64,000 nucleotides of DNA from Psammoneis japonica. Its lineage: Eukaryota. A model generated the notes under the pieces. That model searched no databases and was not told the origin of the DNA. It saw nothing but the letters and a program-made list of their open reading frames with translations. Made by a program: the position numbers and the translations under genes. Positions within the stretch are counted from its first letter, which is position 1. Every line of letters begins with the position of its first letter. The DNA lies in contig QPGO01000139.1 in the NCBI GenBank assembly GCA_008632985.1, positions 62,001 to 126,000 of the forward strand, given 5' to 3'. Shown here piece after piece: positions 13,466 to 64,000 of the stretch.

Positions 13466-14959
13466 GCAGCGTCTCTAATGATATGAGGAAAGCAAATCCT
13501 GTGAAAACTATTCTGTTCGAGTACTTACGTCCAACATAAGCAAGCAACTACTTTTTACTCACATCATCAAGTAGTCGTTTGAGAAGCACTGTCATCGCTT
13601 CTCCATCTCATTATCATATCGTTCGTTTGAACATGTCGTTCACGAGCAATGAATGTTCCCAAAAGCCGAATGGCTTTATCCATTCAAGCCCTTTCCAACA
13701 CATTCTTTCTCGAAAATGCGACCCAAAAAGCTTGGGTTCCTGTCTCTCTCGAACGAACGGACGATATGATCGCACCTGCACAGTCGCCAAGTTGATTGCC
13801 TGCATCACTCTGTGGACACTCTCTGTCTCTTGTGGCAGAGGTGGGTTGTGGTGCAAGCCAAAAGGACACCAGACCTCCATCCAGAGTGCAGATTCCAAGG
13901 AGCCAGGAATTGGAGCTCTCTCTAGCTGGAGGGTCGTAAAGGGTGGGCAGTGTGGGCAGCAAGCATCACCTTGCTCTCAAATCCTCAATGTTTGATGCAA
14001 CATTGATGAAAGAAAAGAAAAAAAGAGATTGCTGCAGCCAGTTGTCTTTGGCAGAAATTGGCGAGGGGCACCAGCAAACATCCTGCGAGTGAGGCAGGCA
14101 CACTGATCTCTGGCTGGGCACACCCCAAAACAGAAAAGTCAAATGCACAGAGTGCCACTTCCAACAAACCCAGCAGCCATGCAAATGTGCAACTGAGAAT
14201 GGGTGATGACTTCCCAAGAAGAAAACAGGAGCAAAAAAGGGAGAAGGGCAGGGGTGGGGGGAGACAAAAAAAAACTGGAGTGCAAAGTGCTGTGTCTTGG
14301 CCACTGACTGCTTTGGCACCTGTCACAAGAAGATGGTTGAGAAACTCCCAGCTGTTGCACATGCAACATGTTTTGTGTTCTGCTGAAGATGGGCGTGACA
14401 TGCGAAATTCTGTGTGTTTGTGAAAACCTCAGAATTGCACACCATCGCTCAATTTGTCACTCTTTAAGTTGTTTTTCAGCTGTTCAAGACACCAATGGCA
14501 AGCAGCTTGTTCATTGAGAAAATGGCACTCTAAAACAAATTTGTGTGCATGCTGGGTTCTGACCAGCCTGGCCCAGGGATGCAAATGTCCAGTCAGACTG
14601 CCTGTGCTTGTTGTGGTCTGAACAGCTGCACAGGCCAACCTGGTGAATGGCAACAAGAAAAGCACTCTCAGCATCATGAAAACCCAGCCCAACTTTGCCA
14701 GAGAATGGGTGCCACATTTGATGGCTCCTGCAGCCTCCATGTCAACAATGCTTTTCAGTGTGCTGCTCTTCTGCCAAGTTGCAAGCAACTCTGCCTGGGC
14801 TCTTTTCTGGCCATCCCAGATTTGTTCTCTCCCTGAGACTTGTCTTCCTTGGGACCAGCTCTTGCAGAGGATTCTCACATTGCAAGACTTGCTGCATCAC
14901 AGGATTCACAGCCAAGACTTTCCTCTGGCACTCTCCACTCATGATGTCCAGATGCTGTG

Positions 14960-17900
14960 CACTCTCATCTCATCACCAACAAATGCCAACACACATTTCT
15001 CAAACAGACATCATGCTGCATTTTTGGCAAAAGCAAGTCAGAGGTTTGGTTGACTCCACTTGCCAAAATGGTGCCAATGATGCCTGCTTCTTTCAACTCC
15101 CACAGAAAAGAGCATTGTCTCACAACACCCCAATTCCAAATGAGGTCCTTTGGTCCTTTGTCATCTGCGTGCAATTTCACAGGCAGCTTTGCTGTTCACC
15201 CTTGGAGCCCAATGCTCTCATTGCAAACAACATCACATCCTGCACACACAAGATTGCACTGAACATTTCTGCCTCTGTTGCAGACAGTGTGCTGCAATTG
15301 GCATTTTGCTCTGCTGCATTGAAACAGGTGCTCCGTGCGTGAATGCAAGCCACCCATTTGCACCCCTCCCAGTCTCAGGATCCTCAGCATGCTCAGAGTT
15401 GCTCTTGCCTGTGATCTCAAATGTGCTGTTCTTGCTGCCACCCCACTTTGCACTCAGCTTCAAATGCAGCACACCATTCAGAGTCACCATGCAACACTTC
15501 ATTTTGTGCTTGATTGCTTCACAATGCACTGCTGCTGCTCCTTCCATGAACTTTGATGACTCCCTGACAGAAATCAACAACTCTGGTCATGTTCAGTGCA
15601 TCATGTGCAGCAGCTTTCCAACTTGAGAATGACACTTCTGTTGCTCAGCCTTGCTCACAGCAGATTCATGCTTCACCAATCATGAGTGTAGATCCACCTG
15701 CAGATGGGGGCACTTGGTGTCTTTCCTTCTGGCAAGTCAAACTTGTCTTCAAAACTCTGAACCATGGCTGGTTGTGTCAGCTTTGTGCTGCCACTCTCTT
15801 GATCAACATCAATCTTCCACCCAACATGCTCTTTGAGTTCTCCAATTTTGCTGCACTCAACAAATTCATTGTTTGTTTGTTGGCTTCTTGAACATGGTGT
15901 TTTGGCCCACAAATGAAGCAATCATCAATGCAAGGCAACCACATGACCAATCCATCAATGAACCATTTGAGCTGCAAACAAGGATCAGCCTTGCTCCTTT
16001 TGTGCTTCATCTTCTTAAAAGCCAGGTTGTTTTCCCCCCACCAAAATGTCACAATGACAGTGCAACATCTCCTGGGTGGAGCTGCTCAAATCCTTGGGAC
16101 ACTTCCATGTGCATGTTTGCCTTCTGCAAATGAGCCATTAAAAAGTTCTTTTCACACATCCAATGACTTGGCCCACCAGCACAAAGCCACCAGCATCATT
16201 GTCAACACAGCTCTTGTTGCACTGTTGTTTGCAGCTGGTGGTGTGCCAACAACATGTCTGATTCTTTGTGATGCTCTTTTTCTGCCTGCTCACATCTGCC
16301 AGCATTCATGCAAGCCCTGAACTCTCTGTTTGCTTCTCTCTTCCCACTGCCCAGGTCAAACTTGGAATTTTTGCATCTTGGGAAATTTCTTTGCAATCTT
16401 TTGGCACTCTAAAACTTCATGCACTGCAAACTTGTGATGCTCTTCTCCTGCAGCTTTGTCCAAATGTGCAGCATCAGCTGCATTCGTTGCTTCATCACAT
16501 TTTGTGACTCTTGGCTCTGACATGTTTCCAAATCTGTGTTGCCCACCAGCCTGGCTCCAATGAGTGCCAGATCAGGCATCTCTGGTGCAAAAAGAGCCAG
16601 CTCATTCAGCTCACACATTGCATCACAAAAAACCTTTCTTCTGCTGGGGTCAATCTAGCTTCGCACCTTGCTGCTCTAACTTCACAATTGCTCAGCGCTG
16701 ATGGCACTTCAACTGTCCTCCCAGATTGGGTTGTTGGCATTTCCACAGTCTCTTCCCTGCTGACAGACTTGTTGTCACCAGAGGCACAAAAAAAAATCAT
16801 CGCCATCGCAGTTGTCATTGTTGCAACAATCGTCAGCAATTTCATCAGCAGCAGCAGCAGCCTTGTCATCATCACCATCTTGGCTCTCCCCAACTTCAAT
16901 GTCAGCAGCAGTTTGATCACCAACTTCTGGTGTCAACTCCAAAATCAGGTGCATCATCATCTCAAATGTTGGCTTGACATGGCACACCTGATGCAACCAA
17001 ATGTCATCATGAGCAGCACACTTTGTCTTTGTGGTTGGTGTGGAAGCTCAGGCTCAACAGCAGATCAACTGTGTGTGCCAGAAGATCAAATTTTTTAACC
17101 ATGGAATTGCTCACTTTGAATGATGAACACAGGGGGCTTTTCAATGGTGCATTTCCTTGGTTGCAACAGAGCAAACAATGGCACACACACTGAATGCATC
17201 AAAAATCACCTCTGCCAGTCTCCAACACATGAGATCATGTGTGAGCCACCATTGGTTTGCCTCAGCAATGTGCCTGCAAAAATTTGTAGAGCTGGTTCCT
17301 TTTCCTTTTTCCCATTGGCCCCTTCATGGAGATGCAATTGGAAAAATCATTGTTGCATGGCAACAACAACAAGAGACTGTTTGAATGCAAAAACAAGAAA
17401 ATTGAATGAGGGTCAATCTTTTGAACCAAATGATTGGGTCTGCCAGCCCCATTTTTCAATGGTTGGGTCACACATTTTGCCACAATCTCCATCATGATCT
17501 TTGGCATGTCCAATGATCATGCAGCATGCTCCATGATCTACAAGAACCCTTCCCATCACTTTGTTTTTTTGATTTTTGCTGTGCACCAGCCTCTCCCCAA
17601 GCCTGAAGATGCTTTGCAAACTTTGTGTTTTTGCCCATCCAATGTTCACATTGAGTGGCCACCTTCCCACCAAGCTCAAAGACTGTCTGTCCATTGAGCA
17701 ATGTTGCCATCATGAGTGCTGCTGGGAACATCTGGTGGCACACTTCCATCAGCACATTGGCTGCTGCTCACATCATTGCTTGCTTGTGATTTGCAATGCT
17801 TGCCAGCCCCAACTCAGAGCCAAGTGACTCTGCTGTGGGGTGTCTTGTGTCTCTTGCTGTGAGAACTTGAGCTGCATGTTCATCTCTTCCAGCCCTTGCT

Positions 17901-18170
17901 CTGGGCTTGTCTGTGCAGCAACTTGTTCTCTCATGTGTTGTTGGGCTGTGTGGACTCAACTTTCTTGTTGGCATTTTTCCAATGACTCTGCTGCTCCAAA
18001 TCAGGTTCTGCCATGCAGTTCTTTGCATCATGGAAAACAGAGAATTTTAGTTGAGGCTCTTCTTCTCTGCCATCATGTGCTGGGAGGAGTGTTGCCCCAT
18101 CTTTCTTTTGTTTGACAGAAGTGACATCCCAGAAGTGACATTCAAAATGCTTTGCTCCCACTCATCTCAG
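14960..18170 (-). mobile_element. Ty1/copia (CoDi-like) retrotransposon pol remnant, frameshifted
   Basis: RT: KRSKADPCL..W...LVMWLPCIDDCFICG (YVDD motif decayed), GELKEHVGWKID and LTQPAMVQSFEDKF. RNase H: ITGKSNSEHAEDPETGRGANGW and DDKGPKDLIWNW...FLWELKEAGII. Integrase-tail DDIWLHQVC. Confidence 0.88.
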
Positions 18171-21100
18171 CTGGTTCATGCTCACTTCTTTCCTGAGGCA
18201 CACATTCTTTTGCTTTGCATGCTGCATGTGTGCTCTGATCCAAGAAGGATTTTTGCTGTCTTGTGAGCTGCATCTTTGCCAAAGTGTCCAACCTTGCCAT
18301 GTGCACCACTCTGATGTCCATTTTTGGTTGAATGCAATGCAGGGCTTGTCCGGGAGATGAAGCTGGCTGGGAGATGGCACCACACATGAAATGGCACAAG
18401 ACATCTGCTGGTGGCATCCTTGACATCATGGTTTGTCTGGCTGGCTGTTTGGCTGCCATCATGGCTGGGTCAGACACAGGGTGTGCTCACTTGCCCAACC
18501 TCAATGGCAAGGGAAAAATCACAAGAGCTGAAATCAATGCCTGGGAGGATGAAACATTTGCCATTCCCCACATTCCCATGTTTGAGGACATTGCACCTCT
18601 CTTCATTGTGGAGATCTTCCTCCCATCGGATGTCATGGGAAACAACGCCATTGACTGGACTGACATTGCCAGCTTGATGATGCCATGGAGAACATCTCCA
18701 ACACTTCAAGCAAGACATCTGAGAAAACCAAAGAGTTCATTTTCATGTTTGAGAATTTCTGCATTGGAGATTCCCAGCATGGCAGCAGTGATGAGTCATG
18801 CAACAATCTTGTGCTTGGTTGCAGGTCCAAGCAAGACAACGGATTCTTGCCTTGCTTTCAGGACAGTCAGTGCTGTTCAGACCACTGCATCAATCTGCTT
18901 CATTGAGGTGCTGCTGAGTTGTCAATGGAGAAATTTGCACCTTGGACAAAGCACATGTGAATCCGTCACTTGTGCTGGCATCTGCAGTGCTTGCTGCAGC
19001 CTTGACCATGACTGCAGTCCCAATGAATGGTGCCACATTAAATCCAGCCCAGACATTCACCAACCAAAAAAAAATCTTGCAAGTGTCACAACTGGCGGCT
19101 TTGTTGTCTTTATTGACACAAGAAAATGGGCCACAAATCATTGTGCAGCAGCAGACCAACTTGAGGTGCAGCAAGGGGTGCAAGGATTGGCATTGTGGCC
19201 CTTTTCCTTGCCAGAGTTGTTCACTCTTGCTCTGTGGAATGGACAAAATGTGGAGCCATTGCTGTGCAGAGTGCAGATGGAGGGACGGGGATCAAGGCAC
19301 GTGTTGCAACTGGGAACATGTTGCAGGTGAAGAATGGTGAAGCAGGGGTGCATCAAGTGCATTGTTGCTTGCCAAGGCACTCAACCAATGGTCTCTGCCT
19401 TCTTCTGGCTACAAGACAGTGAGTCAACCCATGCTGTCACATGGGTCTGAGTTGTGGACACTCACCAATCACATCCATTGCACGTTGCAGAGTTTTTGCT
19501 AGCCATGGCCCACTTCAAAGCATGAGGACAGTGCAGATGAGACATTTGAGTGGGTGAAACAAACAACAGAGCATGTCTGTCATTAGAGGCAGTGCCTGAT
19601 GCAGTGCCATGTGACAACAAAAAGCCTCTTCTTTGCCATCTGCAGTCATGGTGCAAATGGCGCCAGTCAGCAGGAATTTTGGCTGGAGCATTTTGATGTT
19701 CTTCGACAGGCAGCAGGTCAATGCATGGCACCAGTCCACAGATCACTTGCACTCCAAAAATGGGGCACAGTGCAGTGCTGCTGTTGTGCCCACCACTGCT
19801 GCCATGCACAGCAGGAGAAATGTGATCCTGCCAGCCACAGAGTTGGAATCAACGGCACTCTGTGTGCCAGCAAACAAAAGGCAGCATGTGGCAAGCATGT
19901 CACCCCCACCACCACCCAGCAAAGCATTAGCCAGACAGTGAAGCTTTCTGTGAGGGCACTCAGATGACAATGAGTGGGGCTGTCAACAGATCTTGTTGTT
20001 CTGCCCACAAGCGGTGTCTTGAAAAGAGTGCAAAATTAAATGACGACATGCCCTGCACATGTCACATCAGTCACACACAGCTTCTTGGCTTGCATCAGCT
20101 GTCACTGCAGTTTTGCACTGTTTGTCATTCTCCTCATGGAGCAAAAAGCAACTGGCTGAGTCTGTGGCACAGACTTTGTGATGCTGAAAAAGAGAGCAGA
20201 ATGCCATGATGTGCAGCAAAGGTTGGAGACAGGCAGCAATGAGAGCTGTGCTCTTGAGGATGAGACAGTTGCAGGTTTTTCGTGTGTCTTTCTTGCTGGC
20301 TGCAACTGTGCCAGCAGTGCCAGGAAAAATGCCAACAAGGAAAAAAGCCATTCCCAAGGCCTCACAGGTGCATGAAGCCACCTGTGAAAATGTTTTTTCT
20401 TGCCCACAACCATGATTTCACTGTTCAATTGTGCACATGGCATGACTTTGTGTTGGCAAATCTCCAGCAAAACATTTGTCAACAAGTGCAGCTCCATGCA
20501 GCATTGCTTTGAAGCTGTGCATCATGCATGGCTTCATGACCCTGCAACATCAAATCCTTGCAGAGCAGTTTTGTGCAACATGTGCTGCAGCACATTGCTT
20601 GAAAAAGCTGCACAGCCCACACTGTTCCATCTGCCTCACTTCATGTCAAATTTTCACATCACAGAGAAGCACAGCTTTGTGCATTTTGACTTGAGAAGAA
20701 AAATGTGGGGCTGTGGCAGCTGTCATTGCTGTTGCACTTTCAGAGCAAATCTCTCACTGTTGCTGCCAAACAAACTCTTTTGAGGGCCTTTCAATTCCTT
20801 GCTTTTGACTGTCAGAGATGTCTTCTGTGTGCTCCAACAAATTTCTTTCTCAGTCAGCGACTGTCAGCTGAGAGCATGGTTGCTTTTTGGACACAGTGCA
20901 TCTGATGAGGCAATGAGCATGTGCAAGATTTTGCTTCCAATCACTTTTGCATCAATGCTCTTTTTCCATTGCCGACACTTTTTCCCAATGAGATCTGGTT
21001 CACACACATGCTCTCAAAATTCTTGTTCTCACGCAAACCCATGGATGTGTGCACAAACACATTGCAGCACTCTTGGCAAATTTGCTCAGTTGTGCATGTC

Positions 21101-21935
21101 ATCCTTTGCAACACTGTCACAGAACACATCAGCACACCCTGCTCTGCCTGCACCCCCAAGCTGCAATGCACACATGTGTTGAGGTGGCCCCCCTGTGTTG
21201 TGTCCTTGCATTGAGGATGTGTGTGACACAAACAGCACACAGTCATTCAGTGTTCTGAAAGCAACTCATAAAAAGTCAAACAACATGAAGAGTGGCCATG
21301 AGGTGAGATGAGTTGATGGGTGTTGCCCCCTGCAACATGGTGCAACATGCAACAAGAAGAGCTGCTGTGGCAGTCTGTCTGCACAATGACTGGTGCTGGG
21401 GCATGACTTTTCAGCACACACACAACAAATGAAGCACTCAATGGGCAAAACATTGGGCTCTTGTCAGTTGGAGTTGCAAAAATTCTCATCATCAACCATG
21501 TGCTGGGGGACCCATGCACCATCACCACCAGATGCATTGATTTGCATTGCACTTTTGTTGGTGCAATCTCATCCTCCACAGCACCACACCTTCCAATGTT
21601 TGTTTGTTGGCTGATGCAGCCACTGGTGCAGAGCAATCAATGGTCCTTGGCAATGGAGCCTGCAGCTGGGAAGCTCATTGTTGGCAGAGTTTATGTGGGC
21701 TTTTGTCACAAGGCACCATCTTTTTGTTGACTGTTGCACTGCTGATTCTAGCATCAAAATTGCTGCCAGCCATGCATGCTGTGACAACAACACAATGAAT
21801 TGGTTTGTGCATCAGCTTCATTGTGCAACATGCTGGACCACACAGAAGAAATGTGAGAGCAGCATTTGTTGATGCAAGGCCTTTTTCATTTTTCACATCA
21901 AAGTTTTTGCAAGGGCTGCTCTCAAGGCCATGCAC

Positions 21936-22084
21936 GCTGTTTGGTGTTGAGTGAAAGCACTCAAGTTGGATTCTCCATTGCAAGTCAGATGTGAGTTGCC
22001 CAGCTCTTTGCTGTTTGGTGTGGAGTGAAAGCACTCAAGTTGGATTCTCCATTGTGAGTCAGATGTGAGTTGCCCAGCTCTTTG
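21936..22084. repeat. Two-copy tandem repeat, unit about 74 bp
   Basis: gtgaaagcactcaagttggattctccattg(ca/tg)agtcagatgtgagttgcccagctctttg occurs twice. Confidence 0.9.
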
Positions 22085-22809
22085 GAGTGGTGTGCACACC
22101 ACAAACACTGTTTGCATCACATTTCCATGCTCAACCAGAAGAGCCATGAACAATGATTGCAATTTTCACATTGGTGCTTGTTGTTTCCACCCATGCTCAA
22201 TTTACAGTGTTGTTAACTGCACTCTGTTTTGCGCTTCAATTCACAATTAATCTCACAATGATTGCCTGTTTGAGGTCACACACATGTCTTTTTTTTTTAC
22301 ATCTTGTTGGTTTTCACAAATGACAGTTGCAACCACATTGAATTCACCTTTGTTTTGCTCTGTTTCTGCTGCACTTCTCTCTGTTTTTTTCATTGGGCAC
22401 TGCACAACTTGTCCTCTGATTCAATTTGTGCTTGTGACAATGGTGCACCCCTGTCACAATCCACTTTGTTCTGGTTGCATGTCTGACAACAACAACAAGC
22501 ACACTCTCTGCAAACAATTTCAAAGGCATCCCCAGTGTTCTTCATTCTTTTCCATTTTGGCCTCAACAATGCACCTCCATCTCCCATTGGCTCTTTGAGC
22601 AATGCTGCTGCATCATGCTCTTTGGATCCATCAGGATCTCTCAACCATTCCCTTGACTCAAGCACTGATGGATTCATGCCAATGTCCCTTCCAGATGGCA
22701 ATCCACTGTTTTTGTCTCCCCTCTTTTCAGTGCCTCCTGCTTGCAATCAAGAATCTCGCTCCATGAATGACGGCAACATCTCTGTCAATCAGCAAGGTGG
22801 GGAGTTGTT

Positions 22810-23880
22810 TTTTTAACTGCAGCAGTGATTCCCAATGTTTGCCAGAGACAGGCATGGCAATGCTGACATCAGCTGGGTGGAGGAAGGGGCAATCTGGGAG
22901 AAGATTTGCAGGTTCAAGGTGAACATCATTGGATGAATGACACAATTTTGCAAGAGGCCTGAGGGTATGTGCATTGATGAAGACAGTGTCACAAATGCCA
23001 TTGGGCAACTTGGATTTGGGTTTGACTTGCAGGGAAAGGCATGATTGCCAAAGGCACCAAGGGTGGCATGTCCACAGGGACAAGGAGCATCAATGAGGCA
23101 CCACGGAGGCAGCATGGGCAAATGCAGCTTGCACTGAGTCGCCACAGTGCACTTGTCAGAGGCAAGGCAAGAGAGAGGTGTGTGTGTGGTGTGTGAGAGG
23201 AGAGAGAGAGTGAAGTGGGAGGCTGGCAAGGGGAGATCAAAGGGAGGAAAGAGGGGGGTGGACATCAGAAGGAGCATCATTGGCATGGGCAGCGGTGATG
23301 GTTGTGCTGTTGATGAGCACGGCAGAGAGACAGTGTGGCAGGCCAGGAAGAAGCGGTGTTGCTGACTTGACCAGAGCAGAGAGAGTTGGAGAGGAGAAGG
23401 GTGAGTCAGAAGCAAGGGTTTTGGAGGCAAAGTGTTGGAAGACAGCACACCAGCAAAGGTGAAAGCGAGGATTGTTCCAGGAGGAGAGAGACAGTCAGAA
23501 GCAGTGTGGGAGCTCACGGGATTCTCCAGAAGGAAGTTGTGCTCTGTGCCAAAGCAGAAGGATCAGAGCAAGGAGATGAGGAAGGAGGGGACGACAGTGG
23601 CAGCAGGATCCCTGAGGCCAAAGCCGCCAAGAGAGGTGGGGAGAAATGCATCAGCAAGGGAGCGGGGAGGAAAAGGGCTGGTGTGCTGGTGTGCATCGAA
23701 GGAAGTGGTGGATGGTGTCAAGGAGAGAGTCTTGGAAGGAAGAGGTCCAAAGAATGGGGTCGGGTGGGTTGTCGGGGTCAAAGTTGTAATGGAAATCAGC
23801 ACCAAGCAGATGGACCGAAGAAGTGACAAAGCTGTGCATTGCAGTGTTTTGCTGGAGAGTGCGTCGTCGTGATGCACAGA
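22810..23880 (-). mobile_element. CRE-like non-LTR retrotransposon 3' remnant (RT thumb, zinc finger, restriction-like endonuclease)
   Basis: FLPTSLGGFGLRD, then CPCGHATLGAFGNHAFPCK...NGICD (C-C-H-C finger), then HPADVSI (RPAD/PD-D RLE motif). Confidence 0.7.
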
Positions 23881-24097
23881 AACTGGTGTGATGCAAAAAA
23901 AACGTAGAATTCCAGTCGAGTTATTCGGAATCTGCTGTTGTGTGCCTGCACAAGGCACAAGGGTGCACCGCAGTCACTGGACCCTTTGTGGTACGGTGTG
24001 CGGTAGAGTCAAGTGAGGCCATTGTTTTTGCCATTGCTCCATTGCGTTGGACTTGTTGGCTTTCACCACCGTCTTTCCCTCCTTGCTTCGCTTCTGA

Positions 24098-25063
24098 ATG
24101 AAACTTGCTATTAAAATAGTTCGGTTGTTCCTTGGAAACATTGCAATGTCAAAAGAATCAGTCATGCCATCAGGACAGCGCGGCGTCCCCGCAAAGGCTT
24201 TGTTTGCCACCATGCCGTCTTTGGCCGAAACCGATTCGTCGTCCTTCAACGATGACTCGCATGCATCAAACCTCCCAACATTTGATGTGTATCCATTGTC
24301 ACATCTTGAAGGTTTGACAAAGCAGCAGCAAGAGCAGCGCTTCGTCAAGCTGCATGTGATTCGTCATGCCGAAGGCACGCACAATGTCAATAAGGAATAC
24401 CGTGACTTGAAACATTTGGATGCTAGACTTACCCCGAAAGGAAAGGAACAATGCGCTGATCGGGCACAAGCAGGTGGCTATAGCGAACCGCAGCTTATTG
24501 TCACGAGTCCATTGACCCGCTGTGTCGAAACCGCTCATCTTTCCTTCCCTAGCTTGGTAGACAAAGTTCCGGTAGTAGCTCACGAATCGATACGAGAGAC
24601 CGTCAATTACAGTTGCGATCGTAGGCGACGCCGTTCTGAAGTTGCTCCAGAGTTTCCCCGTGTCGATTTTTCATTGGTACAAGAGCATGACGAGATTTGG
24701 AATGGCTACGAAGAGCGCTTGGGATCAAGTCATTCAGGGCATCGAGAGAGTGGTGAACTTCACGTTGTGGCGAATCGAGGGCGGGATTTCTTTTCGTGGT
24801 TATACGGACAAGAGGATAAAAGCGAGGTGATTTTATGCAGTCACGCTGCATTTCTTAGGTGTATCTTTGGATTTGGACAGAAAGGTGGCGTCCTCAATGC
24901 ACCGCCCCAATCTCTGGATTCCCGAGAGGAGCCTAGGCAAGATGTTCCTGTTTTCAGATACCGTGGAAGTGATGACGATTTTGAAAGAAACATGCGGAAA
25001 GATTTTTCCAACTGTGAAATGAGATCGCTTGTTGTGGCATTTCCAAAGGAGTTGTCAAAGTAG
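24098..25063 (+). CDS. Histidine phosphatase / phosphoglycerate mutase-like protein
   Basis: VIRHAEGTHN catalytic motif, DARLTPKGKEQ, IVTSPLTRCVET and CSHAAFL. Confidence 0.92.
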   Translation: MKLAIKIVRLFLGNIAMSKESVMPSGQRGVPAKALFATMPSLAETDSSSFNDDSHASNLPTFDVYPLSHLEGLTKQQQEQRFVKLHVIRHAEGTHNVNKEYRDLKHLDARLTPKGKEQCADRAQAGGYSEPQLIVTSPLTRCVETAHLSFPSLVDKVPVVAHESIRETVNYSCDRRRRRSEVAPEFPRVDFSLVQEHDEIWNGYEERLGSSHSGHRESGELHVVANRGRDFFSWLYGQEDKSEVILCSHAAFLRCIFGFGQKGGVLNAPPQSLDSREEPRQDVPVFRYRGSDDDFERNMRKDFSNCEMRSLVVAFPKELSK

Positions 25064-25398
25064 AGAAGGCATCTAGCAGAATGAACGACAAGCTATGCTA
25101 TCAACTGGAGTATCAAATAATTTAGATAACCTTCAAAGCCTCCCAAAAGCCAAAAGCGTTTGCGAAGGAAAAACGGAATGACGACTGGCTTGCGAATCGA
25201 GAGTGTACTTCTAATCTAGCATCGTGGCGTTGAGGCTTCTGTGACTATACGGCACTTCTTTCAGCGCAAGATACCTACTAGTACCCGATCCAACGGCACA
25301 GAGCACGCCTGCTGCAAACATGGCGATTTCTTAGAGTTTGGTAGCTTTGCGTTCCGCGCGCTGTCTCTGCACCATCTCCAATTTGCAATGCGGGGGTG

Positions 25399-25560
25399 AC
25401 CTCTACTCTAGAGGGCCCTACTTCTACTCTAGACTAGAAGTAGCTCTCTAGACAGAGTCTAGCTCTAGACAGAGTCTAGAGGGCCTCTACCCTCTACCGT
25501 ACTATGATAGAGAGGGCCCTGACATAACATACCTATTGTAGGAACTAGGCCTATGGTACG
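25399..25560. repeat. CTAG/CTAC/GGGCCC low-complexity island
   Basis: ctctactctagagggccctac...ctctagacagagtctag (x2)...agagggccct. Confidence 0.8.
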
Positions 25561-25763
25561 AGCACCGACGTGGCCGTACTCGTGACTCCGGAAGATGCAA
25601 CACGTGACTGAAGAAGAAGCCGCATCGCGAGTTGCGATTTGGCGATTTGCGATCGATGGATGCGCTCAGAGCGCGTAGGGCCCTAGTAGGGCCCGCCCTA
25701 GCGCCTCATCGTTCTCCTACCGTACGGTATGCAGGTATGATGTTGTCCACAACGCACTTCAAA

Positions 25764-26312
25764 ATGAGCTTTATTCTCTTCGTTCTTGTTTTTGCTCCCA
25801 TCACTTCTGTATGGTCGTGGACGATTCGAATTCCTGGCGGAGGCAAGGTCTCTCTTGATAATTCCGGTGTGCTCCGCATCCAGACTCGACCGGTTGAAAC
25901 CCCTTCGATCCCTGAATCTCCACCGGATGCACGTGTCTTAACTTCTATTCAGATTCGAGATACGGGAACTGTAAAGGGTTTTGGGGCATACTGTACAAAG
26001 CCTCTTGATAAATTTACATTCCTCGGGCTATATGAAGGGAAGAGAGTGTCGAGCATTGACGAATGTGCTAACAAGGACTACATTATGAGTCTAGATGGTG
26101 GAGTGACGTTTCTAGATGGCTATCAGCGTGCTCAGAATCGAACGGTTTTCACTCCAGCACATCTCAACCATGCGGATAGCGGGAATTGTATGAGGGTATT
26201 AGAAGATGAGAGGGTTGCTTTCTTCACATCTAGATCCGTTGACGCTGGGGAAGAGCTCTGTTTTGACTACGGGTCAAACTACTGGATGGGACGGTCACAG
26301 CACAAGATTTGA
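25764..26312 (+). CDS. Small SET-domain protein with a predicted signal peptide
   Basis: KGFGAY, FLGLYEG, HLNHAD and FFTSRSVDAGEELCFDYGSNYW. Hydrophobic N-terminus MSFILFVLVFAPITSVWSW. Confidence 0.85.
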   Translation: MSFILFVLVFAPITSVWSWTIRIPGGGKVSLDNSGVLRIQTRPVETPSIPESPPDARVLTSIQIRDTGTVKGFGAYCTKPLDKFTFLGLYEGKRVSSIDECANKDYIMSLDGGVTFLDGYQRAQNRTVFTPAHLNHADSGNCMRVLEDERVAFFTSRSVDAGEELCFDYGSNYWMGRSQHKI

Positions 26313-26454
26313 AAATGTTCTATCCATGATTGTCATCGCTGAAATCCGTTGACGCTGGGGAAGAGCTCTGTTTTGTCTGCGGGTCAAACTACTGGATGGG
26401 ACGGTCACAGCACAAGATTTGAAAATGTTCTATCCATGGTTGTCATCGGCTGAA
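26234..26454 (+). repeat. 110-bp tandem duplication of the SET gene 3' end and stop codon
   Basis: atccgttgacgctggggaagagc...gtcatcg(g)ctgaa at 26234 and 26344. Confidence 0.95.
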
Positions 26455-29400: not shown

Positions 29401-29521
29401 CAGTTTTGCCCAACCACTGACCATCGCATGAGCAGTGTCAACCCATGCGGCACCAGGGGCAAGCGCCACCTCTTGCTTTTTTCACCTCCACCACAAATGC
29501 ACAAGTCTTGACACTTTGACA

Positions 29522-30250: not shown

Positions 30251-30379
30251 TCAGAGAAGCACTTCCCTTGTTTTGGTGGTCTGGAATGCCTGCTGATGCA
30301 CCAGTGGATTCAATCACACGGCATCTCTGTTCAGGCATTGTCCTGTGCTTGATGCCGAAGGAAGTCTGGGGCCACTGAA

Positions 30380-31950: not shown

Positions 31951-31989
31951 ACTGAACATGCATCAGCGGAGAATCTTGCCATCACGCAG

Positions 31990-38916: not shown

Positions 38917-39096
38917 GAGGAAGGAAGCTGGATCGATGGGGTGACAGCAAACTGTCTTAAGGGAGTTAGACACACTTCATAGATGACCAAGATCATGATG
39001 TATTAACCCAATTTATGAAACATGCTACTCGTGTATGAATGATGATGGAGCGGTGTACAAAATTTGAGACCAATTCGGACATGCACAAGATTCCGC
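38917..39096 (+). repeat. About 180-bp direct repeat, copy 2 (3' flank of the MFS gene)
   Basis: Aligns to 34672-34849. Confidence 0.9.
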
Positions 39097-48850: not shown

Positions 48851-49054
48851 TTTCGGAGGGACACCGTTGAGTGGAAAAACAGAGACGACATCATCACGCA
48901 CCCACACTCGTTCATCAGACGTCTGGCAATGTTCAAAAAAGAAAGATACCATACCTTATATTTGTCGTGAAGCTAGAGATACGCTGCCTCGCAACTGCCT
49001 CTACGAGTGCTTTTCCCTCCTCTCTAAAGTAGCTATAGCCCTAGACCCTAGCAC

Positions 49055-49940
49055 CAGCCAGCTGTGCCATGGGTCGATCTCGCTCACCGGAAAAGGAGAG
49101 AAACATGTTGTGCTGACAAATGCGCATGCAAAGAGAGGGTGCCACAAGCGCAAAGCATCATTTGAGAGCTGTCGACATCACAAAACATGAGCTTGTGGCA
49201 GCTGGCTGCAAGCTGCATTTGTGGGGGAGGGCGGGGGTGTCCTTGGCTTGTTGAGATGGCACTTAGATCCACAACAGCCCTGTCTTGCAAGGTGAGTTTG
49301 ATGGCGCACGCTTGGTTGCTGCAAACAACTTGCGAGAGGGCTTTTTTGTCCAAGCGCTGTTTTTTTCTCATCACCTGGGCTGGAGAAAAACTCAGCCCAT
49401 TTCTGTCAAGCTGAGCTTTTCTGTGCTGCAATCCAAAAAAGCAATTTTTTCATTTTGTGCAACAAAATGAGGCGTGCTCACAGCGACAAGAGCTGGCTGC
49501 AAGAAGCGGGGTGGGGCGCAAACAAAAGGAAGCAGCGCAAGGAGCATCGGCGCACTGGCTGTGGGGGCTGGCTGGGGGTGTTTGACAATGGTTTGCATGA
49601 CGAGGAGAGTGCTGCTGGCAAGAGCTTCCAAAGACTGCCACAAGAGGGTCGCCAGGCACACTGCTGGCAGCTCTGGCCTTGCTTGGAGCCTGGGCAACGC
49701 GGCAAAACCAGCTGCAGAGGGGCTGTTTCTCCAACCAGAAGCGCAACTCACTTGTCTTTTGCAATGCACTGAGACAGTCCAACTCTGACTGAGAAGAGGT
49801 GCACACCTGCTGGCAGCTTTAGAGTGGACGTAAAGCTTCAAGCGGGGGGAGGGGGCAGTGGTTTGGTCCTGGCATGCATGGCTGGGTTGCCCTGTACAGT
49901 CGTGTGGGTGCCACTTAAGTGGCTGTTGCTTTGCAAGACT
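49055..49940. mobile_element. Short TpA-depleted decayed repeat block, family not assigned
   Basis: TA nearly absent while many CG are retained. Starts immediately after a CTAG-rich patch. Confidence 0.55.
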
Positions 49941-56279: not shown

Positions 56280-56525
56280 TCTCTCGCTCTCTACTCTAGA
56301 GAGGTGAGATTGACGTTTAGTTGTTGAGATTTGCCACCGGACTGATTTGATCACTATTACTTGGACCAGGATACAATAGACTACTCTCTAGAGAGTAGGG
56401 CCCTACTACTTACTACTTCTACTCTCTACTCTCCTACTCTAGCTACTCTCTAGAGACTAGAGTAGAGAGTAGAGGTCTACACTCTTTAGCTACCGTAGCT
56501 ACGGTAGAGTAGGCGAGCGTACTGT
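56280..56525. repeat. CTAG/CTAC/GGGCCC low-complexity island
   Basis: ctactctctagagagtagggccctactacttactac...ctagagactagagtagagagtag...taccgtagctacggtag. Confidence 0.85.
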
Positions 56526-56559: not shown

Positions 56560-59500
56560 CACGATGGCCAGAGCCAACCGAGGCTCCTCCGATTTACCGA
56601 CGTGCACGATCACCAGACTTGGTCTTGATCCTAGCAGACAACAACCAACACCACCACTGAGAGAGCATTAAAACCATGTAGGTTAAAAAACAATTGAGAG
56701 GAGTCTCATGGCTCGATGCATTCGGCAGATGCGTGCAAGTCACACTGGGGGGTTGGGCAACATGTTTCCCACACCCTCCGCAGGGTCTCCCCACTGGAAA
56801 CAGCAAAGAGGGCTCAAAGGCAAAACCCTGGATCCAGCCTGGGGGGGGGGTGATCCAAGCTTTGATGTAAACCCATGCCACGGTGTCATTCATCATGGTG
56901 GAAGTTTGTTGCAAAAGCAAATCCCCGCGTCGAGAGGGCAGCTCAGCTTGTCCTCTCAATCCCTGGGGCCCGACATCCAATTGGCTTTCCTCACTCACAT
57001 CCTCAGTGGCTCCCTTGGCTGCCTGAGAGAAGTGTGAGCACATGCCCACCCCCCCCCCCCCCCCCATTGAGAACCCTCATTGGTGGTGGCCATGTGCCAC
57101 CTGCGCGACACAAGAAAAGCACAAGGAACCACACTCTGCAGTGCTTGGCAAATTTGGCCAACTCTTTTTGCTTGCATTGCACAAGTGTGCCACAAAAAGG
57201 GTTCCAGGAGCAGAGTGACATCTGCACAGTGATGCTTCATTCGATGGGTGGGGCATTTTTCCTTCTTGGCCAAGCGGTTGATCATGTCAACGTCATTCAT
57301 GTCGACCGTTTTCATGATGGCACAAGAATCCAATCCTCACCAAAAAGATCTTGATGCATCACATTTTTCCTCAATGTCAGCATGCAAAGAAACATCCAAC
57401 TGAATCAACAACAAAAAGTGCAAATTGAAGACACAGCACAAAGCCTGATGAAGCTGAGCATTTGAGGCTCCAGAGGTAAGATGTTTCCCCCGAGATTGCC
57501 GGCCCACTGACTCTGCCCAAATTTTCATTGCTCGCCACTGCCTTCTGGAGCCACAAGTGGATCTGAGTGCCAGAGCTGGTCTTGTCACAGCACAGAAAGA
57601 GATGTCAGGGCTCCCTGTGCTCTCCCTTGACCTTGCCCAGCAAAGCCAGAACCACATGATGGTTTGAGTGGGCCCAAAGGCACACCAAATCAAGCAACAA
57701 TCCTTCTGGACCCTGGAATGAGAGAACAAGGCTCGCAGCAAAGCAAAAGCCTGCAACAAAAAGCCAAGTGTGACCAGAGCTGCTGAGCTTGGAGAGTTGA
57801 CCTTGTCTGCCACCTGAGACAGCAAACAGCTCATTGACTTTGCTGAAGTGGCTCAATCGGGGCACCAGTCCTGTCCCACTCAGTGCTTGCAACCAGCAAA
57901 GAACCTCTGGTGCCACAGGGGTGCACAAGGGTTGCTGCAGATGTGCAAATGCTGCTTTCCATCCAAGTTGACCATTGCCCATGCCTTCAAGTTTGCCTCT
58001 GCAGTGGCTCAGACCTGATTTGAGTGGGCCAAGCAAAGAAGTCTCCCCAAACTGTGTCAAGCTGAGTGCGCAGGTGGTGGGGCCCAAATCCAAGTCCCAA
58101 ACTGAAACTTGGTGGGCAGGTCAAGTGGAGAGCTTTTTGGGCAATGCCACCCAGCAATGTCATGGCCCTTTTGGCACCAATTGACAGGAGACAGCAACAC
58201 TGGTTTGGGGGTGCCACCCCAATCCTCAATCCAGGGTGACAAAGTGGGAGACCTCTCGAAGGCTCCCAAATGCAGTGGAATGAAGGACGTCATGCATTTT
58301 CCTTCCATGACTCCCTTGGTGAGAACTCCATGGGAGATCCTGTCAGTTCCTTGAGCCGCCAGTGTCCAAGTTTCATGCCGTGCACCAATTGGAGTTTCGG
58401 GCACCACAAGTCCAAAGTGAGATGCCAGCCCTTTAAGAAAGGGTTCAAAAAGTCACACATTGTGGCCAAATGCACAGTGCAACCCCTCTTCTTCTCCAGG
58501 TCCTTGAAATCAACAAAAGATGGCAACTCAATTCTTCCTTCCTCCTGCACTTCCTTGTGGACAAGCAGCAGGCTCTGGATGATGAGCTTGGTCTTGTCCC
58601 ACTTTGCCATGGACATGGTCGCCATCAAGTCTGTGCTGTTCAGCACTCAGAAGATTGCTGCTTTAGCCCAAGCACCAATTTGCTCTCTCAACGGTCCCTC
58701 TCCTCACTTGATTTGATCATTTCAGCTGCAGAGTCATGGTTTTGAGAGAAGTCACTGCATTCCACAGATCTTCATCACAGTGTGGTGTCAGCGCTCCACT
58801 CTCAGGAGCAAATTGGGTGGTGTCAGTTGTTTGATGGACGTTTCTCCAAAGTGTGGAACATGACACAACTTCACATCTTTTGGCAAGTGGCACTCATCAG
58901 ACCCTTTCAGAACAAGAGAAGAGATTGAAAACTGAGTGGCCAGCATTGGCAACTGCATTTGGGAGCAGTTGTGGGAGTTGTTGGATGAACACAATGATGC
59001 AGTTCACGGGCACAATGCAGAAACAAGGAAGTCTTCTCAGCATCAAGATTCCAAAGCAGAAGTGAAAGCCATTTGTTTGTGATCAGATGATTGCCCAGTG
59101 AGAGACAAGGCACATCTGCTGGATTTGGCAGAAGAACACTTGACACATTTGACACATCATCTCTGCAACTGGCTGGCCATGGTCAAGCCAATGTTCAAAT
59201 CAAGCATCAGAGAAGCAAAGCGGTTTGCTGCCAGAGGTGCAAGAACCATTGCAAGTTGTTTTGGTGTGGCGTCACCCTCAGGTGATGCTGATTCTGGCCA
59301 ATCATCACATGCTCCTGCTGCGCTGTTGGTGCACAGGGGGTGTGGGTTGGCTTGTTGCTGGAGTTGCAGGGTGGAAGTGCAGCAGCACTTTAAAATGTGG
59401 ATTTTTGGTTTTGTTTTGTTTTGCTCTTTCAATGGTGGTCAGAACTTGTGTGGTGCATTCTGGGTCCCCAAGTGCTGGAGTCGTGATGCCATTTGTCTTG

Positions 59501-61000
59501 CCACTCACCACATGTTTTCCTTGCTGAACCCCAGCCCCCTTCTTGGATCATCTGCAGACATTTTAAGATCACACTCAGCAATGGCCTGACACTTCTCAAT
59601 CCACTTCATTGCCCTGGGGGGAACCATGGTTTGTGCACCATGTCTCCAGGAAGGTTAAAGAATGTGAGAGCAAAGCCCACAGGATTGTCTGGGAGAGAAG
59701 GATCTCCCCTGCTGCAAATCTCTTTGGCCCAACAGAACATCCTCACCACATTGCATGGACTTGGCATCACACCCATGAAGAGGCAAGCCCATTGTTCATT
59801 GTTCATTGTTCACAGCAGACGGGAGGCCATTCAAACCCTTTGGGTTCTGGGAGACACTTGGTGAGAGGAGAAAGGTTGACAACCACATGTGGTCTAATCT
59901 TGAGATCCACAAATGTGTTGAGGAAACAATCCCCCAGATCCAAGTCCACTGAAAAGGTTGGTGCAGTCATGCAACCCAGTGCAGACTTGGGAGAAGGGAG
60001 AAAGAAACCTGGGGCCCATGAATGAAGTGTCATTCAGACTCAAGGACATGCTGTTTGCAAACCATCTTAATGTCTTCAACAATCTCCACCAACTCTCCTC
60101 CCTCAGGTTCCTGACACACAATCTTGGGGACCCAGAAGCAGTCAGTGGACTTTTGACATGCTCGCACTTCAGGTGCCCATGAAGGTGGACCTTCTGGATC
60201 TTTTCCACACCATTTGTTTGATCTTGGAATCTGCACCTTAAATTTGCTGTCACCTGGAATGCTGGGAAAGAGGATCTCTGATGAAAATGGGAGTGCCATC
60301 AGCTGCACCAAGAAGTTCCTCCCCTTTTGGTCAATGCCAGAAGAAAAGGGTGGAACCCCTGTCTCAAGCCCACCAAGAACTTGGGAAAACTTGCTCCAGA
60401 GCTTCACAACCAAGTGCAGCATTGACCCCCCTGCTTCCGACCATGTTGGTCTGCATGAGTTCACTGCAAGGCAAACAATGCCACAGCCCAGGTCTCCCCA
60501 TGAGAGTCCCAAAGACAATTGCAAACAAATGCCAAAGACACTGGCACCACCCCTGGAAAGCACCCAATTGCAGCACCTCAAGTGCCTCTGGAGACATGGG
60601 GAACAGCAACACAATCCGTTTGTCCCAAAGCCAAAATGGAGGAGCCACACTGACGCTTTTGGCAGCCTCATCCATGATGAGTGAAAGGTCAATCCATGCA
60701 TGGGGCAAGAATCTCCCCAACTCAGGGAGCCACATCTCATCAGCACATTGAGGCTGCGGGCATGTGCTGAGATCAGCATTGAACAGGAAAGCTCCAGGCT
60801 GCTGGCAACTCATCTCCATCCACAAGCTCCAACCACCCTGAGATGCAAAAGCAAGGTGGACAACCACCACCTTGTGCAGGTCCATTGGTTGCAAGCAATC
60901 ATTGCTTGAGTGACAGTCCCTGGACCCCGCAGCAGGCACATTTTCACCCATGACCTTGTGATTGATTGTGTGTCCAATGGCCCTTGTTTGATGCATGGGC
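56560..61000 (-). mobile_element. Tyrosine-recombinase (DIRS/Ngaro-like) retrotransposon remnant
   Basis: RT: CFWVPK..DIKMVC, WAPGFFLP, DLDLGDCFLN, MGVMPSPC and NLPG. Then LEKKRG...PFLKGWHLTLDLW and AQGTDRISHG...FIPLHL...WAPPPA. YR tail: DVDMINRL...MKHHCAD. Confidence 0.8.
58690..59560 (+). mobile_element. Non-LTR (LINE) 3'-end fragment nested in the YR retrotransposon
   Basis: LWELLDEHNDAVHG (W..W..RN..VHG motif) and HLCNWLAMVKP. Splits the YR-element RT. Confidence 0.55.
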
Positions 61001-61139
61001 GGGGGGGGGGGGGGGGGGGTCACATCAAAACCTGATGCAAAAAACTTGGGTTGCATGGACATGACTCCACCAACCCACCTGTGGGGAATGGAAACCAGTT
61101 TGGCACTCTGCAGATCATCACACCAACTTCCTTTTCCAA

Positions 61140-62472
61140 ATTGCATGTGGAAGTGCCTTGAGTGCCTTGTCTCGCTGTCTGGGAGCCAAAACTGTGGAGG
61201 TGCCTTGAGTGTCTTGTCTTTCTTCAATGGGGTCCCATCATCTGAGGGAACTCCAAATGTGGAGGTGTGCCTTGAGTGCCTTGTTTCCCTTCAACAGGTT
61301 CCCATCTGTGGGAACCCACAATGTGGAGGTGCCTTGATTGAATTGTCTTCCTTTAACAGGCTCCCATCTGAGGGAGCCCAAAACCTGGAAGTGCCCTGCC
61401 CCCCTTCAATGGGTTCCCATGTGAGGGAACCCAAAATGTGGAGGTGCCTTGAGTGCCTTGTCTCCCTTTGATGGGATCCTGCATGATGAGAGAACCAAAA
61501 ATTTTGAGGTGCCTTGAAAGTCTTGTCTTTCTTCAATGGGTCTCATCTGAGGGGCAGAACCCCAAATGTTGAGGTGCCTTGAGTGCCTTCTCTCCATTCT
61601 TCAAGCAATCCCCTCTGACAGAGCCCAAAATGTGGAGGTGCCTCAAGTGCTTTGTCTCCCTTTGACTGGTTGCCATTTGAGGGAACCCAAAATTTGGAGG
61701 TGCCTTGAGTGCCTTGTCTCCCTTTAACAGGTTCCCATCTGTGGGAACCCAAAATGTGGAGGTGCCTTGAGTGCCTTGTCTCTCTCTAACAGGCTCCCAT
61801 CTGTGGCAGCACAAAATGTGGAGTTGCCTTGAGTGTCTTGTCTTGAGCGCCTTGTCTCCCATTGACATGGGATGCTGCATGAGAGAACCAAAAATGTGCA
61901 GGTGCTTTGAGAGTCTTGTCTTTCTTCAATGGGGTCTCATCTGAGGGGCAGAACCCAAAATGTGGAAGTGCCTTGAGTGCCTTGTCTCACTGTGGTGGGC
62001 TCCCATCTGTGCTGGGAGCCAAAAATGTGGAGGTGCCTTGAGTGTTTTGTCGTCTTTCTTCAATGGGGTCCCATCATCTGTGGGAACTCCAAATGTGGAG
62101 GTGTGCTTTGAGTGCCTTGTTTCCCTTCAACAGGTTCCCATCTCTGTGGGAACCCACAATGTGGAGGTGCCTTGATTGAATTGTCTCCCTTTGACAGGCT
62201 CCCATCTGAGGGAACCCAAACCCTGGAAGTGCCCTGCCCCCCCTTCAATGGGTTCCCATGTGAGGGAACCCAAAATGTGGAGGTGCCTTGAGTGCCTTGT
62301 TGCCCTTTGACAGTTTCCCATTTGAGGGAACCCAAAGTGTTGAGATGCCTCAAGTGCCTTGTCTCCCTTTGACATGGTCCCATCTGTGGGGACCCAAAAT
62401 GTGGAGGTGCCTTGAGTGCCTTGTCTCCCTTCAATGGGTTCATGTTTGAGGGAACCCAAAATGTGGAAGTGC
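61140..62472. repeat. About 60-bp minisatellite (about 22 units) with higher-order duplication
   Basis: Unit gggaacccaaaatgtggaggtgccttgagtgccttgtctccctttRacaggYtcccatctgW. Confidence 0.93.
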
Positions 62473-63559
62473 TTTTTTGAACAATTTATCATGTGGAATT
62501 GTTCTGCAGGAGTTTGTGTGTTGAACACAGAATTTCAGTGACAATGTGGAGTTGATGTGTGCCAAGATGAGCTCACTTCTTGAAAACAGCAGCACAATGT
62601 TGCAGCTTTTCTTTTAGTCTGTTCCCCCCAGTGCATGCCTTCACAGGGTATTTTGTTCACTTTGTCAGAGCCATTTGCCGCAAGTGGTGACAATGGCATC
62701 AATGATTTCACTTGTGATTGCTTTGCAGCAACAGCTTTCATTCCACAGAGTCAGGGATGATGCACAAACATCTGCAAGCACAAGATGGTGCTCGTGCTTC
62801 ATGAGTTGGTTGCTCCCAGACATAGTTTGACTGCAACACTTGTTGACAACTGCAGTGTCAAACACCATTCTGATGTGTCACATGGTGAACATGTGCAGAC
62901 ACAGAGCACAACCCATGGATTTGGGGTGCCATTTTTACTCCGAAGTTGTCTCGGAGGCAACGCGTGAGTGATTTGAAATCGCTGGGTGACAATGTCATGT
63001 GTGGACTCAAATGTGACATGATGTCAGTTTCAGTCACTAAAATCATGTGTCATGTTCAGACACACTCACAAGTGGAACACAGTGAAAAGCAAGTGATCAT
63101 CTGGATCATGAGCTGCTCTCTCATGGTGGACTGAAAATGTGGCGAGGAACAAGGAAACCATCAGCGATTGGCGATTCATGTGCTGACGGCTGATGGTTTT
63201 CCTGTGCTGACCATTGATGACATCAGTTTGAAAAAGCTCTGCTCTCAAGCCACCCAGAAAAGATGGCAAAAGCCATCTGGCTTTTGACAAGATGAAGATG
63301 AAAGCGGAACATGGAGCCATGAGAATGTGATGGAGGATGGATGATGGGTCAGGGAAAAAGCACAGATGCAAAAACCTGACAGCAAAAAGAAAAGAAAAAG
63401 AAAAAAGGGGACAGTTCATTTTGAGCTTTGAATTGATTTTGGTGCCAACTCCATTTTGGATTGGGTGGAGAATGGTGCGGCATGGATTGTCGCATGGACA
63501 AAGGCTCACAGCCAAAGCCAATTGTCACATGTGTGCTTGCATGTCAGGAGAGCAGACAA

Positions 63560-64000
63560 TCGGGCTTCGACAAGTGGATCTTGATGGACAGCATGAAACT
63601 GTGTGTTCACGTGACATGAGAATGACAGGCGGGACAGATTTTGGCTCGGTGCTTCATTTTGCAATGCTTGGACAGCAAAGACAAGATTTTCCAATCGTGA
63701 GATGACATGTGGTCATGTGTTTGCATGCCGTTGATGTGGTGGCAAAGTCAAATGGTCCATGAAGGAATGCATCTTGGTGATGAACACACACCCATTGGGA
63801 GAAGACAATGAGTCATTTGTCACATGCATGGCCAATTTCATTTGGGGAAGGTTTGAGCAGATGAAAGTCATTGTGAAGGACAAATCGTCCATTGAGCTCA
63901 CATGACATTCTTTCCAATGTCACTGATTTGGGGCATTGAATTGCACATCATGAGGGTGCCGTGCAAAAAAGTTGGTGCAGATCTTGCCACCAGAGAAGAC
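63560..64000 (-). mobile_element. Possible copia-like pol 3' remnant, truncated by the window end
   Basis: Hypermutated composition. AFLHGPFDFA resembles a motif I recall from diatom copia-like polyproteins (unverified). Confidence 0.35.

Follow-up and report, generated by a model that had tools for sequence, protein, structure and literature searches.

TpA-directed transition hypermutation accompanies CpG decay in old, mostly transposon-derived DNA of Psammoneis japonica

The stretch of DNA analysed here, hereafter called the window, comprises 64,000 nucleotides (nt) of the diatom Psammoneis japonica (contig QPGO01000139.1 of assembly GCA_008632985.1, positions 62,001 to 126,000 of the forward strand) and contains two kinds of DNA: ordinary, gene-bearing sequence and seven blocks that have lost almost all TpA and much CpG. 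The genes encode ordinary eukaryotic proteins, including a CobW-type GTPase (open reading frame (ORF) 46804-48525), whose best named relatives are found in Fragilaria, Seminavis, Mayamaea and Cylindrotheca (53-61% identity), as well as mitochondrial carrier, DHHC, Mpo1-like, SBF and histidine phosphatase proteins. An earlier reading of the same letters (the original prediction) had listed a set of repeat blocks poor in TA and rich in TG and CA among ordinary neighbours. When the window was split using 1-kb bins, TA spacing and TA-free runs, nearly the same intervals were obtained, and dinucleotide observed/expected (o/e) ratios confirm the contrast. The blocks, with their o/e ratios, are as follows.

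7674-8757: hypermutated block B0 (TA 0.03, CG 0.19, TG 1.76, CA 2.10)
13937-23787: hypermutated block B1 (29 TA, 0.04; 49 CG, 0.09; TG 1.82, CA 1.97)
about 27000-33325: hypermutated block B2 (TA 0.03, CG 0.17, computed on 27127-33325)
34955-38798: hypermutated block B3 (TA 0.06, CG 0.38)
42180-46125: hypermutated block B4 (TA 0.08, CG still 0.59)
49049-49820: hypermutated block B5 (TA 0.05, CG 0.42)
56868-64000: hypermutated block B6, which continues past the window end (TA 0.04, CG 0.15)

Pooled over 32,829 nt, the blocks retain 98 TA (o/e 0.05) and 467 CG (0.23) and hold 3606 TG (1.77) and 3674 CA (1.78), compared with 1248 TA (0.57), 1592 CG (0.92), 2340 TG (1.19) and 2281 CA (1.19) in the 31,171 nt of non-block DNA. 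All but one of the 51 TA-free runs of at least 200 nt lie within blocks, the longest measuring 1,655 nt. The o/e values of the four pyrimidine-purine (YpR) dinucleotides add up to 3.83 in the blocks and 3.87 outside; since this total is conserved and TG and CA have gained what TA and CG have lost, the outcome consists of transitions only. The two products are strand-symmetric overall, as the TG and CA counts indicate, and a runs test showed no clustering of TG or CA outcomes into strand-coordinated tracts (z -1.5 to +2.9). TA o/e lies below CG o/e in all seven blocks, most clearly in B4 (0.08 versus 0.59). AA and TT are not depleted (1.20/1.22 in the blocks versus 1.17/1.20 and 1.12/1.09 outside), nor is ApT; TC/GA is slightly lower in the blocks (0.99 versus 1.10-1.14), and the GC content is 0.494 versus 0.471 outside. 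In the 14,192 nt of non-block DNA that lie outside long ORFs, TA o/e (0.62) and CG o/e (0.88) are normal, and the depletion is therefore no general property of non-coding sequence. The block edges are sharp: B1 stops 311 nt upstream of the ATG at 24098 and B2 stops 176 nt upstream of the ATG at 33501, in both cases in front of a gene that looks intact, and on the left side of B2 the regular spacing of TA ends with the one at 26996, the next TAs being at 27127 and 28469.

Survival of TA within the blocks depends on the flanking bases. It was scored for each tetranucleotide as the block count over the non-block count, with non-block DNA serving as a proxy for ancestral counts. TA preceded by a purine and followed by a pyrimidine (R-TA-Y) is nearly gone (ATAT 1/86, GTAC 2/97, ATAC 3/169; together 1.7%), TA in the opposite arrangement (Y-TA-R) survives best (TTAA 24/57, CTAA 29/103, CTAG 9/89; together 25%) and words with mixed flanks show intermediate survival (4.6%). 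A hand-fitted additive model with one effect per flank, in which the -2 and +1 effects are indistinguishable, reproduces 5 of the 6 non-palindromic classes. CG survival obeys another rule and is highest in GC-rich flanks (GCGC 0.70).

The TA-free sequence is very probably not an assembly artefact, a possibility raised with the original prediction: contigs built from k-mers of a public sequencing run (X1) carry the same sequence at gene-level depth. For 24001-34000, 92% of sampled 31-mers are present in X1, and contig depth is 62-66 in the blocks (about 65x, single-copy) versus 57-73 in neighbouring genes. One 11,369-nt contig (depth 65.7) is identical to 13501-16079 and shows 17 differences from 16124-21964. 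Among 32 listed differences between the window and single-copy X1 contigs, a further 421 lying beyond that list, 5 are exchanges between TA and TG or CA, 11 are exchanges between CG and TG or CA, and 1 is a TG to CA double; B1 and B2 in total contain just 43 TA and 111 CG.

Repeats inside the blocks record the direction and timing of the change.

35488-35762, forward strand: internal direct repeat of B3, copy 1 (partner 36988-37263)
36988-37263, forward strand: internal direct repeat of B3, copy 2 (partner 35488-35762)
35772-36435, forward strand: 42-bp satellite array in B3, varying mostly at YpR positions, with all four YpR states present
61186-62472, forward strand: 62-bp satellite array in B6, 20 units

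The two copies of the B3 internal repeat differ at 22 of 276 aligned positions, and 19 of these mismatches lie in exchanges of one YpR dinucleotide for another; the differences comprise 7 CA/TG doubles, 5 exchanges between CG and TG or CA, and 3 others. Both copies retain CG at 13 sites and just one does so at 5 others, a pattern corresponding to a loss of about 16% per copy, from which about 0.24 CA/TG doubles would be expected versus the 7 observed; the doubles therefore derive from TA. No susceptible TA is left in either copy, the two surviving TAs both lying within TTTAG, and TA loss in this duplicate exceeds CpG loss more than 10-fold (roughly 13-fold) and that at other sites roughly 100-fold. 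Similarly, one column of the 62-bp array reads CA in 9 units, TA in 3 and TG in 6, another reads TG in 9 and CA in 9, and a 74-bp tandem in B1 contains one CA/TG double. TA is thus the ancestral state and was converted in place after duplication, as seen in the B3 duplicate, the satellites, the polymorphism between the window and X1 and the Tyr codons of a host-type pseudogene in B2.

26993-28654, reverse strand: EMP70/TM9SF pseudogene, wholly inside B2, complete but dead, host-type

This copy matches PF02990 (E=1.4e-16, 60.7 bits versus a cut-off of 27) and was mapped by tblastn with 33 full-length homologs, from which a profile hidden Markov model was built that aligns at E=9.6e-29; the alignment runs through in-frame stops and a frameshift, and the gene is not intact. 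At 13 well-aligned consensus-Tyr columns it has 0 Tyr and instead 5 Cys (all TGT), 1 His (CAC), 1 TAA stop, 2 Phe and 4 other residues, with Gly kept in 13 of 18 columns and Trp in 4 of 6. The stop codon coincides with the left edge of B2, and the copy may have arisen by gene duplication or retro-copying, or may represent a gene engulfed by a silent domain. A word-based homolog search with an EMP70 fragment, at longer lengths, returned 724 candidates, none at E<=1e-5, probably because hypermutation destroys shared words, and a PDB sequence search with the fragment gave 0 matches. In the 27290-27293 region a conserved Trp is aligned with Gln (TGG to CAG, a TG to CA double), which suggests that ordinary TG to TA or TG to CG changes are quickly re-resolved to TG or CA.

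The blocks are old, mostly transposon-derived DNA, and the features recognised in them or at their edges, other than those above, are the following.

15780-16085, reverse strand: candidate eroded copia-type reverse-transcriptase remnant in B1, with CIDD where RVT_2 has YVDD
34669-34849, forward strand: left flanking direct repeat of B3, outside the TA-free zone (partner 38914-39096)
38914-39096, forward strand: right flanking direct repeat of B3 (partner 34669-34849)
42117-42187, forward strand: left terminal inverted repeat (TIR) of the Tc1-like element, TA and CG retained
42180-46125: interior of the TIR-bounded Tc1/mariner-like element, equal to B4
44934-45260, reverse strand: weak DDE_3 transposase remnant with PCCP (PF13358, E=0.0015; its 18.9 bits fall short of the 28.6-bit cut-off)
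46087-46159, reverse strand: right TIR of the Tc1-like element, differing from the left TIR by three changes (CG/TG, TA/TG and G/A)

Pfam searches of 150 block ORFs gave EMP70 and the weak DDE_3 as the only relevant matches and no RVT, rve or integrase domain; the ORFs of B0 (7674-8757) had no match at all. In B1, neither the ORFs (E<=0.05) nor seven read-through frames (E<=0.01) matched RVT_2 or an integrase, and these frames gave no other transposon domain, the one match being a chance-level ILVD_EDD_N (E=0.0029); eight read-through frames of B6 gave no domain. Self-BLAST of the window revealed no long terminal repeat (LTR) pairs for B1, B2 or B6, and a search of the Atlas, a protein-language-model resource, with ORF 60033-60809 (reverse strand) returned no usable match. 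For the ORF at 15780-16085, the nearest Atlas clusters are RVT_2 (score 0.95, 187 of 256 features in common), a neighbourhood that serves as a lead rather than a test. The five motifs to which the original prediction had pointed are all present where it placed them, namely CIDD (15921-15932, reverse), CKCGC (36748-36762, forward), PCCP (45024-45035, reverse), HCAD (57220-57231, reverse) and DIKMVC (60057-60074, reverse). The transposon classes that it had assigned fared unevenly: the motifs, the weak DDE_3 match and the RVT_2 neighbour speak for them, and the copia, DIRS and tyrosine-recombinase labels, based on short motifs, are weakened by the failed profile tests.

The claim that the process is restricted to repeats is weakened. 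The genome contains additional diverged copies of parts of B1 and B2 (depth 110-349 at >=80% likeness; 172 contigs placed at that level, 100 of these <90% alike), and in B2 depth rises from 63-66 over 27.5-29.5 kb to 110-219 over 29.5-32.2 kb, so that part of this block is repeated. The EMP70 pseudogene and the greater part of B1 and B2 stay at single-copy depth even at 80% likeness, and short repeats at the edges of blocks or outside them are spared or lightly changed. The former include the element termini. The TIRs of the Tc1-like element (60-73 nt, 92-95% complementary) and the repeats flanking B3 (82% identity over 190 nt, 4 shared TAs intact, 4 differences between TA and TG or CA) are spared or lightly changed; the B3 repeats, possibly short LTRs or copies of a duplicated target, mark the limit of the mutated domain. 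Just outside the Tc1-like TIRs, the sequence reads TA on the left side (42116-42117) and TG on the right (46159-46160), which would fit a TA target-site duplication with TA to TG change in the right copy. B4 is the sole block with a clear skew of outcomes (TG 348 versus CA 462), and it contains a less mutated stretch of about 700 nt at 44161-44881 with 13 TAs and a 46-bp tandem repeat at 44644-44740.

We consider it probable that these data reflect in-place, domain-limited, near-saturating YpR transition hypermutation of silenced DNA, driven by a targeted base-modifying enzyme. The blocks would represent silenced, mostly transposon-derived DNA together with one engulfed or duplicated host pseudogene, on which two arms may act. 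The CG arm would convert CpG to TpG or CpA at roughly the usual rate for methylated CpG, presumably through deamination of 5-methylcytosine (5mC). The TA arm would convert TpA to TpG or CpA (A:T to G:C) on either strand, sparing AA, ApT and the neighbouring genes. A second, strand-symmetric A:T to G:C process at TpA beside CpG decay had been proposed originally, and this part of the proposal, with the process limited to particular domains, is upheld by the constant YpR sum, the near equality of TG and CA, the independent resolution of repeat copies, the replacement of Tyr by Cys or His in a well-conserved host family and the agreement of the X1 contigs with the sequence. The speed of the TA arm, its dinucleotide specificity, flank preference and domain restriction and its indifference to melting argue for an enzyme and not spontaneous damage. 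As a first choice, a candidate deaminase that prefers T at -1, acts on both strands and would be recruited by the silent-chromatin or repeat state may convert the adenine 3' of T to hypoxanthine, a base read as G; APOBEC and TadA enzymes have -1 base preferences. As a second choice, a TET/JBP-type enzyme may oxidise the T of TpA to a product that mispairs with G; 5-formyluracil is known to miscode.

More tentatively, the enzyme may belong to a dedicated A:T-directed genome-defence hypermutator of diatoms or of this lineage, which would act at silenced or duplicated DNA and convert TpA to TpG or CpA with a preference for R-TA-Y; the candidates are an adenine deaminase acting on DNA and a thymine dioxygenase with a miscoding product. 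The original prediction had spoken of genome defence similar to repeat-induced point mutation (RIP), and the RIP-like hypermutation stands, while methylation, the enzyme, its targeting and a defence function are what we infer. Of the mechanisms suggested at the time, mutagenesis by a Pol-eta-type polymerase at A preceded by A or T (WA) is disfavoured: such polymerase error predicts A to G changes at both TA and AA, and AA/TT o/e is undiminished in the blocks. Two further candidates were rejected by reasoning: GC-biased gene conversion is not expected to be dinucleotide-specific, and an ultraviolet signature would affect dipyrimidines.

Several considerations weigh against a targeted enzyme or a defence system. 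To our knowledge, no natural eukaryotic DNA adenine deaminase has been described. The ancestral tetranucleotide counts are only approximated by non-block DNA, and the rate estimates come from one 276-nt duplicate and assume 50:50 outcomes. X1 is possibly the assembly's own data and its library type is unrecorded, making it a not fully independent replicate, and it rules out base-calling or polishing error only if its reads are accurate short or HiFi reads. Much of the block sequence lies at single-copy depth, which leaves its status as a repeat unproven. Finally, in a background set of 80 metagenome loci (377,928 nt) chosen around relatives of the CobW gene, no 1-kb window was TA-poor, CG-poor and TG/CA-rich (0/80), and the longest TA-free gap among loci with GC <=0.51 was 253 nt; as these contigs are short and gene-rich, the absence of comparable blocks from 378 kb says little either way.

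An explanation without a dedicated system deserves serious attention, although we regard it as unlikely: passive decay, in which TpA is slowly eroded along with methyl-CpG, in chromatin that replicates late, is methylated and is not transcribed, by repair or polymerase error with a sequence-context bias, for example by biased T:G mismatch processing tied to 5mC repair or by a translesion polymerase. It is consistent with the age of the blocks, their lack of LTR pairs and mostly single-copy depth, with the co-occurrence of CpG decay and TA loss, with edges that lie at gene-proximal boundaries as those of chromatin domains do, and with the effect on a single-copy EMP70 pseudogene. Passive decay does not readily account for a TA loss that exceeds CpG loss in every block, and roughly 13-fold in the dated duplicate, or for the strong R-TA-Y preference; AA and TT are untouched, contrary to WA-type polymerase error, and TTAA, the most easily melted word, survives best, the opposite of what breathing-dependent spontaneous damage would produce.

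Adenosine-to-inosine editing of transposon RNA, fixed by reverse transcription and re-integration, is very improbable. ADAR hyperediting, which operates on RNA and depends on retrotransposition, leaves clusters of A to G changes in metazoan retroelements, preferentially after U; the A to G change after T seen here resembles such editing, and B1 contains a candidate copia-type remnant. In contrast to an ADAR footprint, the changes arose in place, on both strands equally, and also in non-retroelements: in-place duplicates and satellite units were resolved independently, which largely refutes the idea, and the TIR-bounded DNA-transposon-like element and the host pseudogene are equally affected. 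Moreover, the terminal repeats are spared, though LTRs would be copied from edited RNA, and AA is not depleted. An artefact of sequencing, base-calling or polishing at modified heterochromatin bases is equally hard to credit. The unrecorded library type of X1, and its origin from the same sample as the likely assembly source, leave it some room, but k-mer contigs of up to 11.4 kb reproduce the blocks at gene-level depth, strand-dependent misreading would halve depth or split haplotypes, neither of which is observed, frameshifts, stops and non-YpR substitutions mark real decay, and in-place repeat copies show fixed TG/CA differences. That the elements are intrinsically poor in TA and CG, by sensor evasion or foreign origin, instead of mutated is the least credible explanation and, for the sequences analysed, is refuted. 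RNA viruses are known to suppress UpA and CpG (excerpts of PMC3829696), but DNA lacking TA has no codon for Tyr, Cys or His has replaced conserved Tyr in the host-type EMP70 copy, stops and frameshifts abound in the blocks, repeat copies show CA versus TG at corresponding sites, and unrelated sequence types share the pattern.

Among known systems, fungal RIP, which occurs in Neurospora, requires RID/DNMT4-type enzymes and operates premeiotically, resembles the targeted hypermutation favoured here in being near-saturating, transition-only and dinucleotide-specific, in acting on both strands, in place and with sharp edges on transposon-type DNA, and in destroying coding capacity. The logic is RIP-like and the chemistry is reversed: RIP changes C:G to T:A mainly at CpA, makes TpA and lowers GC, whereas the process here destroys TpA by A:T to G:C change, leaving TA o/e at 0.05, CA at 1.78 and GC near 49%. 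As to a RIP-type trigger by duplications exceeding a threshold of length and identity, extra copies exist for parts of the blocks (depth 110-349), most of the block sequence is single-copy, and repeats of 70-190 bp as well as a 110-bp tandem outside the blocks are spared or lightly changed. All transposon-directed hypermutation systems known to us (RIP, RIP-like CpG/TCG decay and APOBEC) deaminate cytosine. Very-short-patch repair in Escherichia coli, which is tied to T:G repair associated with 5mC, depletes CTAG via T to C change; it is bacterial, specific for CTAG/CCWGG and genome-wide, whereas CTAG survives comparatively well in the blocks. The decay of transposons by methyl-CpG deamination in vertebrates and plants shares the CG to TG or CA arm, which is visible here in the CG o/e (0.23 versus 0.92 outside) and in exchanges between CG and TG or CA among repeat copies and haplotypes, and runs at roughly 12-23 times background in the dated B3 duplicate. 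Methyl-CpG decay cannot remove TpA, and in the blocks TA loss is faster and goes further than CG loss.

Transposons are CpG-methylated in model diatom species, and diatoms carry RID-related DNMT4 enzymes of unknown function, DNMT4 being present in 31 of 60 surveyed species, according to excerpts of PMC9998398. CpG/TCG hypermutation of transposons is reported for basidiomycetes (excerpts of PMC3318451). In dinoflagellates, TET/JBP enzymes place 5-hydroxymethyluracil on transposons, overlapping 5mC, with a preference for TA and TC in C. cohnii. This is a likeness in that a thymine modification is placed on repeats within the SAR (stramenopiles, alveolates and Rhizaria) lineage; in the excerpts of PMC11572971 on which this comparison draws, the modification is described as an epigenetic mark, with no mutational outcome reported there, and its TA/TC preference differs from the pattern here, in which TC/GA is just slightly lowered.

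Literature searches, supplementary files not covered, found no published description of TpA-directed transposon hypermutation, and a term search of the main diatom transposon paper (PMC2806351) found no mention of it. If the hypermutator exists, it would be the first RIP-like system to change A:T to G:C and the first A-to-G editor of DNA to occur naturally in eukaryotes, one that erases every Tyr codon, TAA and TAG within its domain faster than methyl-CpG decay. This would amount to a new mutational signature and a new route of gene inactivation, with no Tyr codons and TGA as the sole stop, and possibly to a new natural DNA A-to-G activity relevant to base editing. It also raises the testable question of whether a RIP-like pathway operates in diatoms, which carry RID-related DNMT4 genes. 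The affected transposons evade profile searches, with one weak transposon-domain match among 150 ORFs, and repeat annotation of such genomes will therefore under-call them; an index combining TA, CG and TG+CA would detect them.

Further observations concern sequence in and around the blocks. About 350 nt away from B6, a TA-rich low-complexity tract at 56404-56525, in which TAs recur at intervals of 3-10 nt, is unaffected. The 110-bp tandem duplication at 26234-26455 (96% identity) overlaps the end of ORF 25632-26312, has ordinary composition and is not hypermutated. Within B2, an imperfect tandem repeat of 36 nt (31392-31484, 2.6 copies) is rich in ACAACA/GCAACG. GpC o/e is high in B0 to B5 (1.21-1.62), not in B6 (0.96), which could result from adjacent YpR sites (e.g. 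TATA to TGCA) or from family composition.

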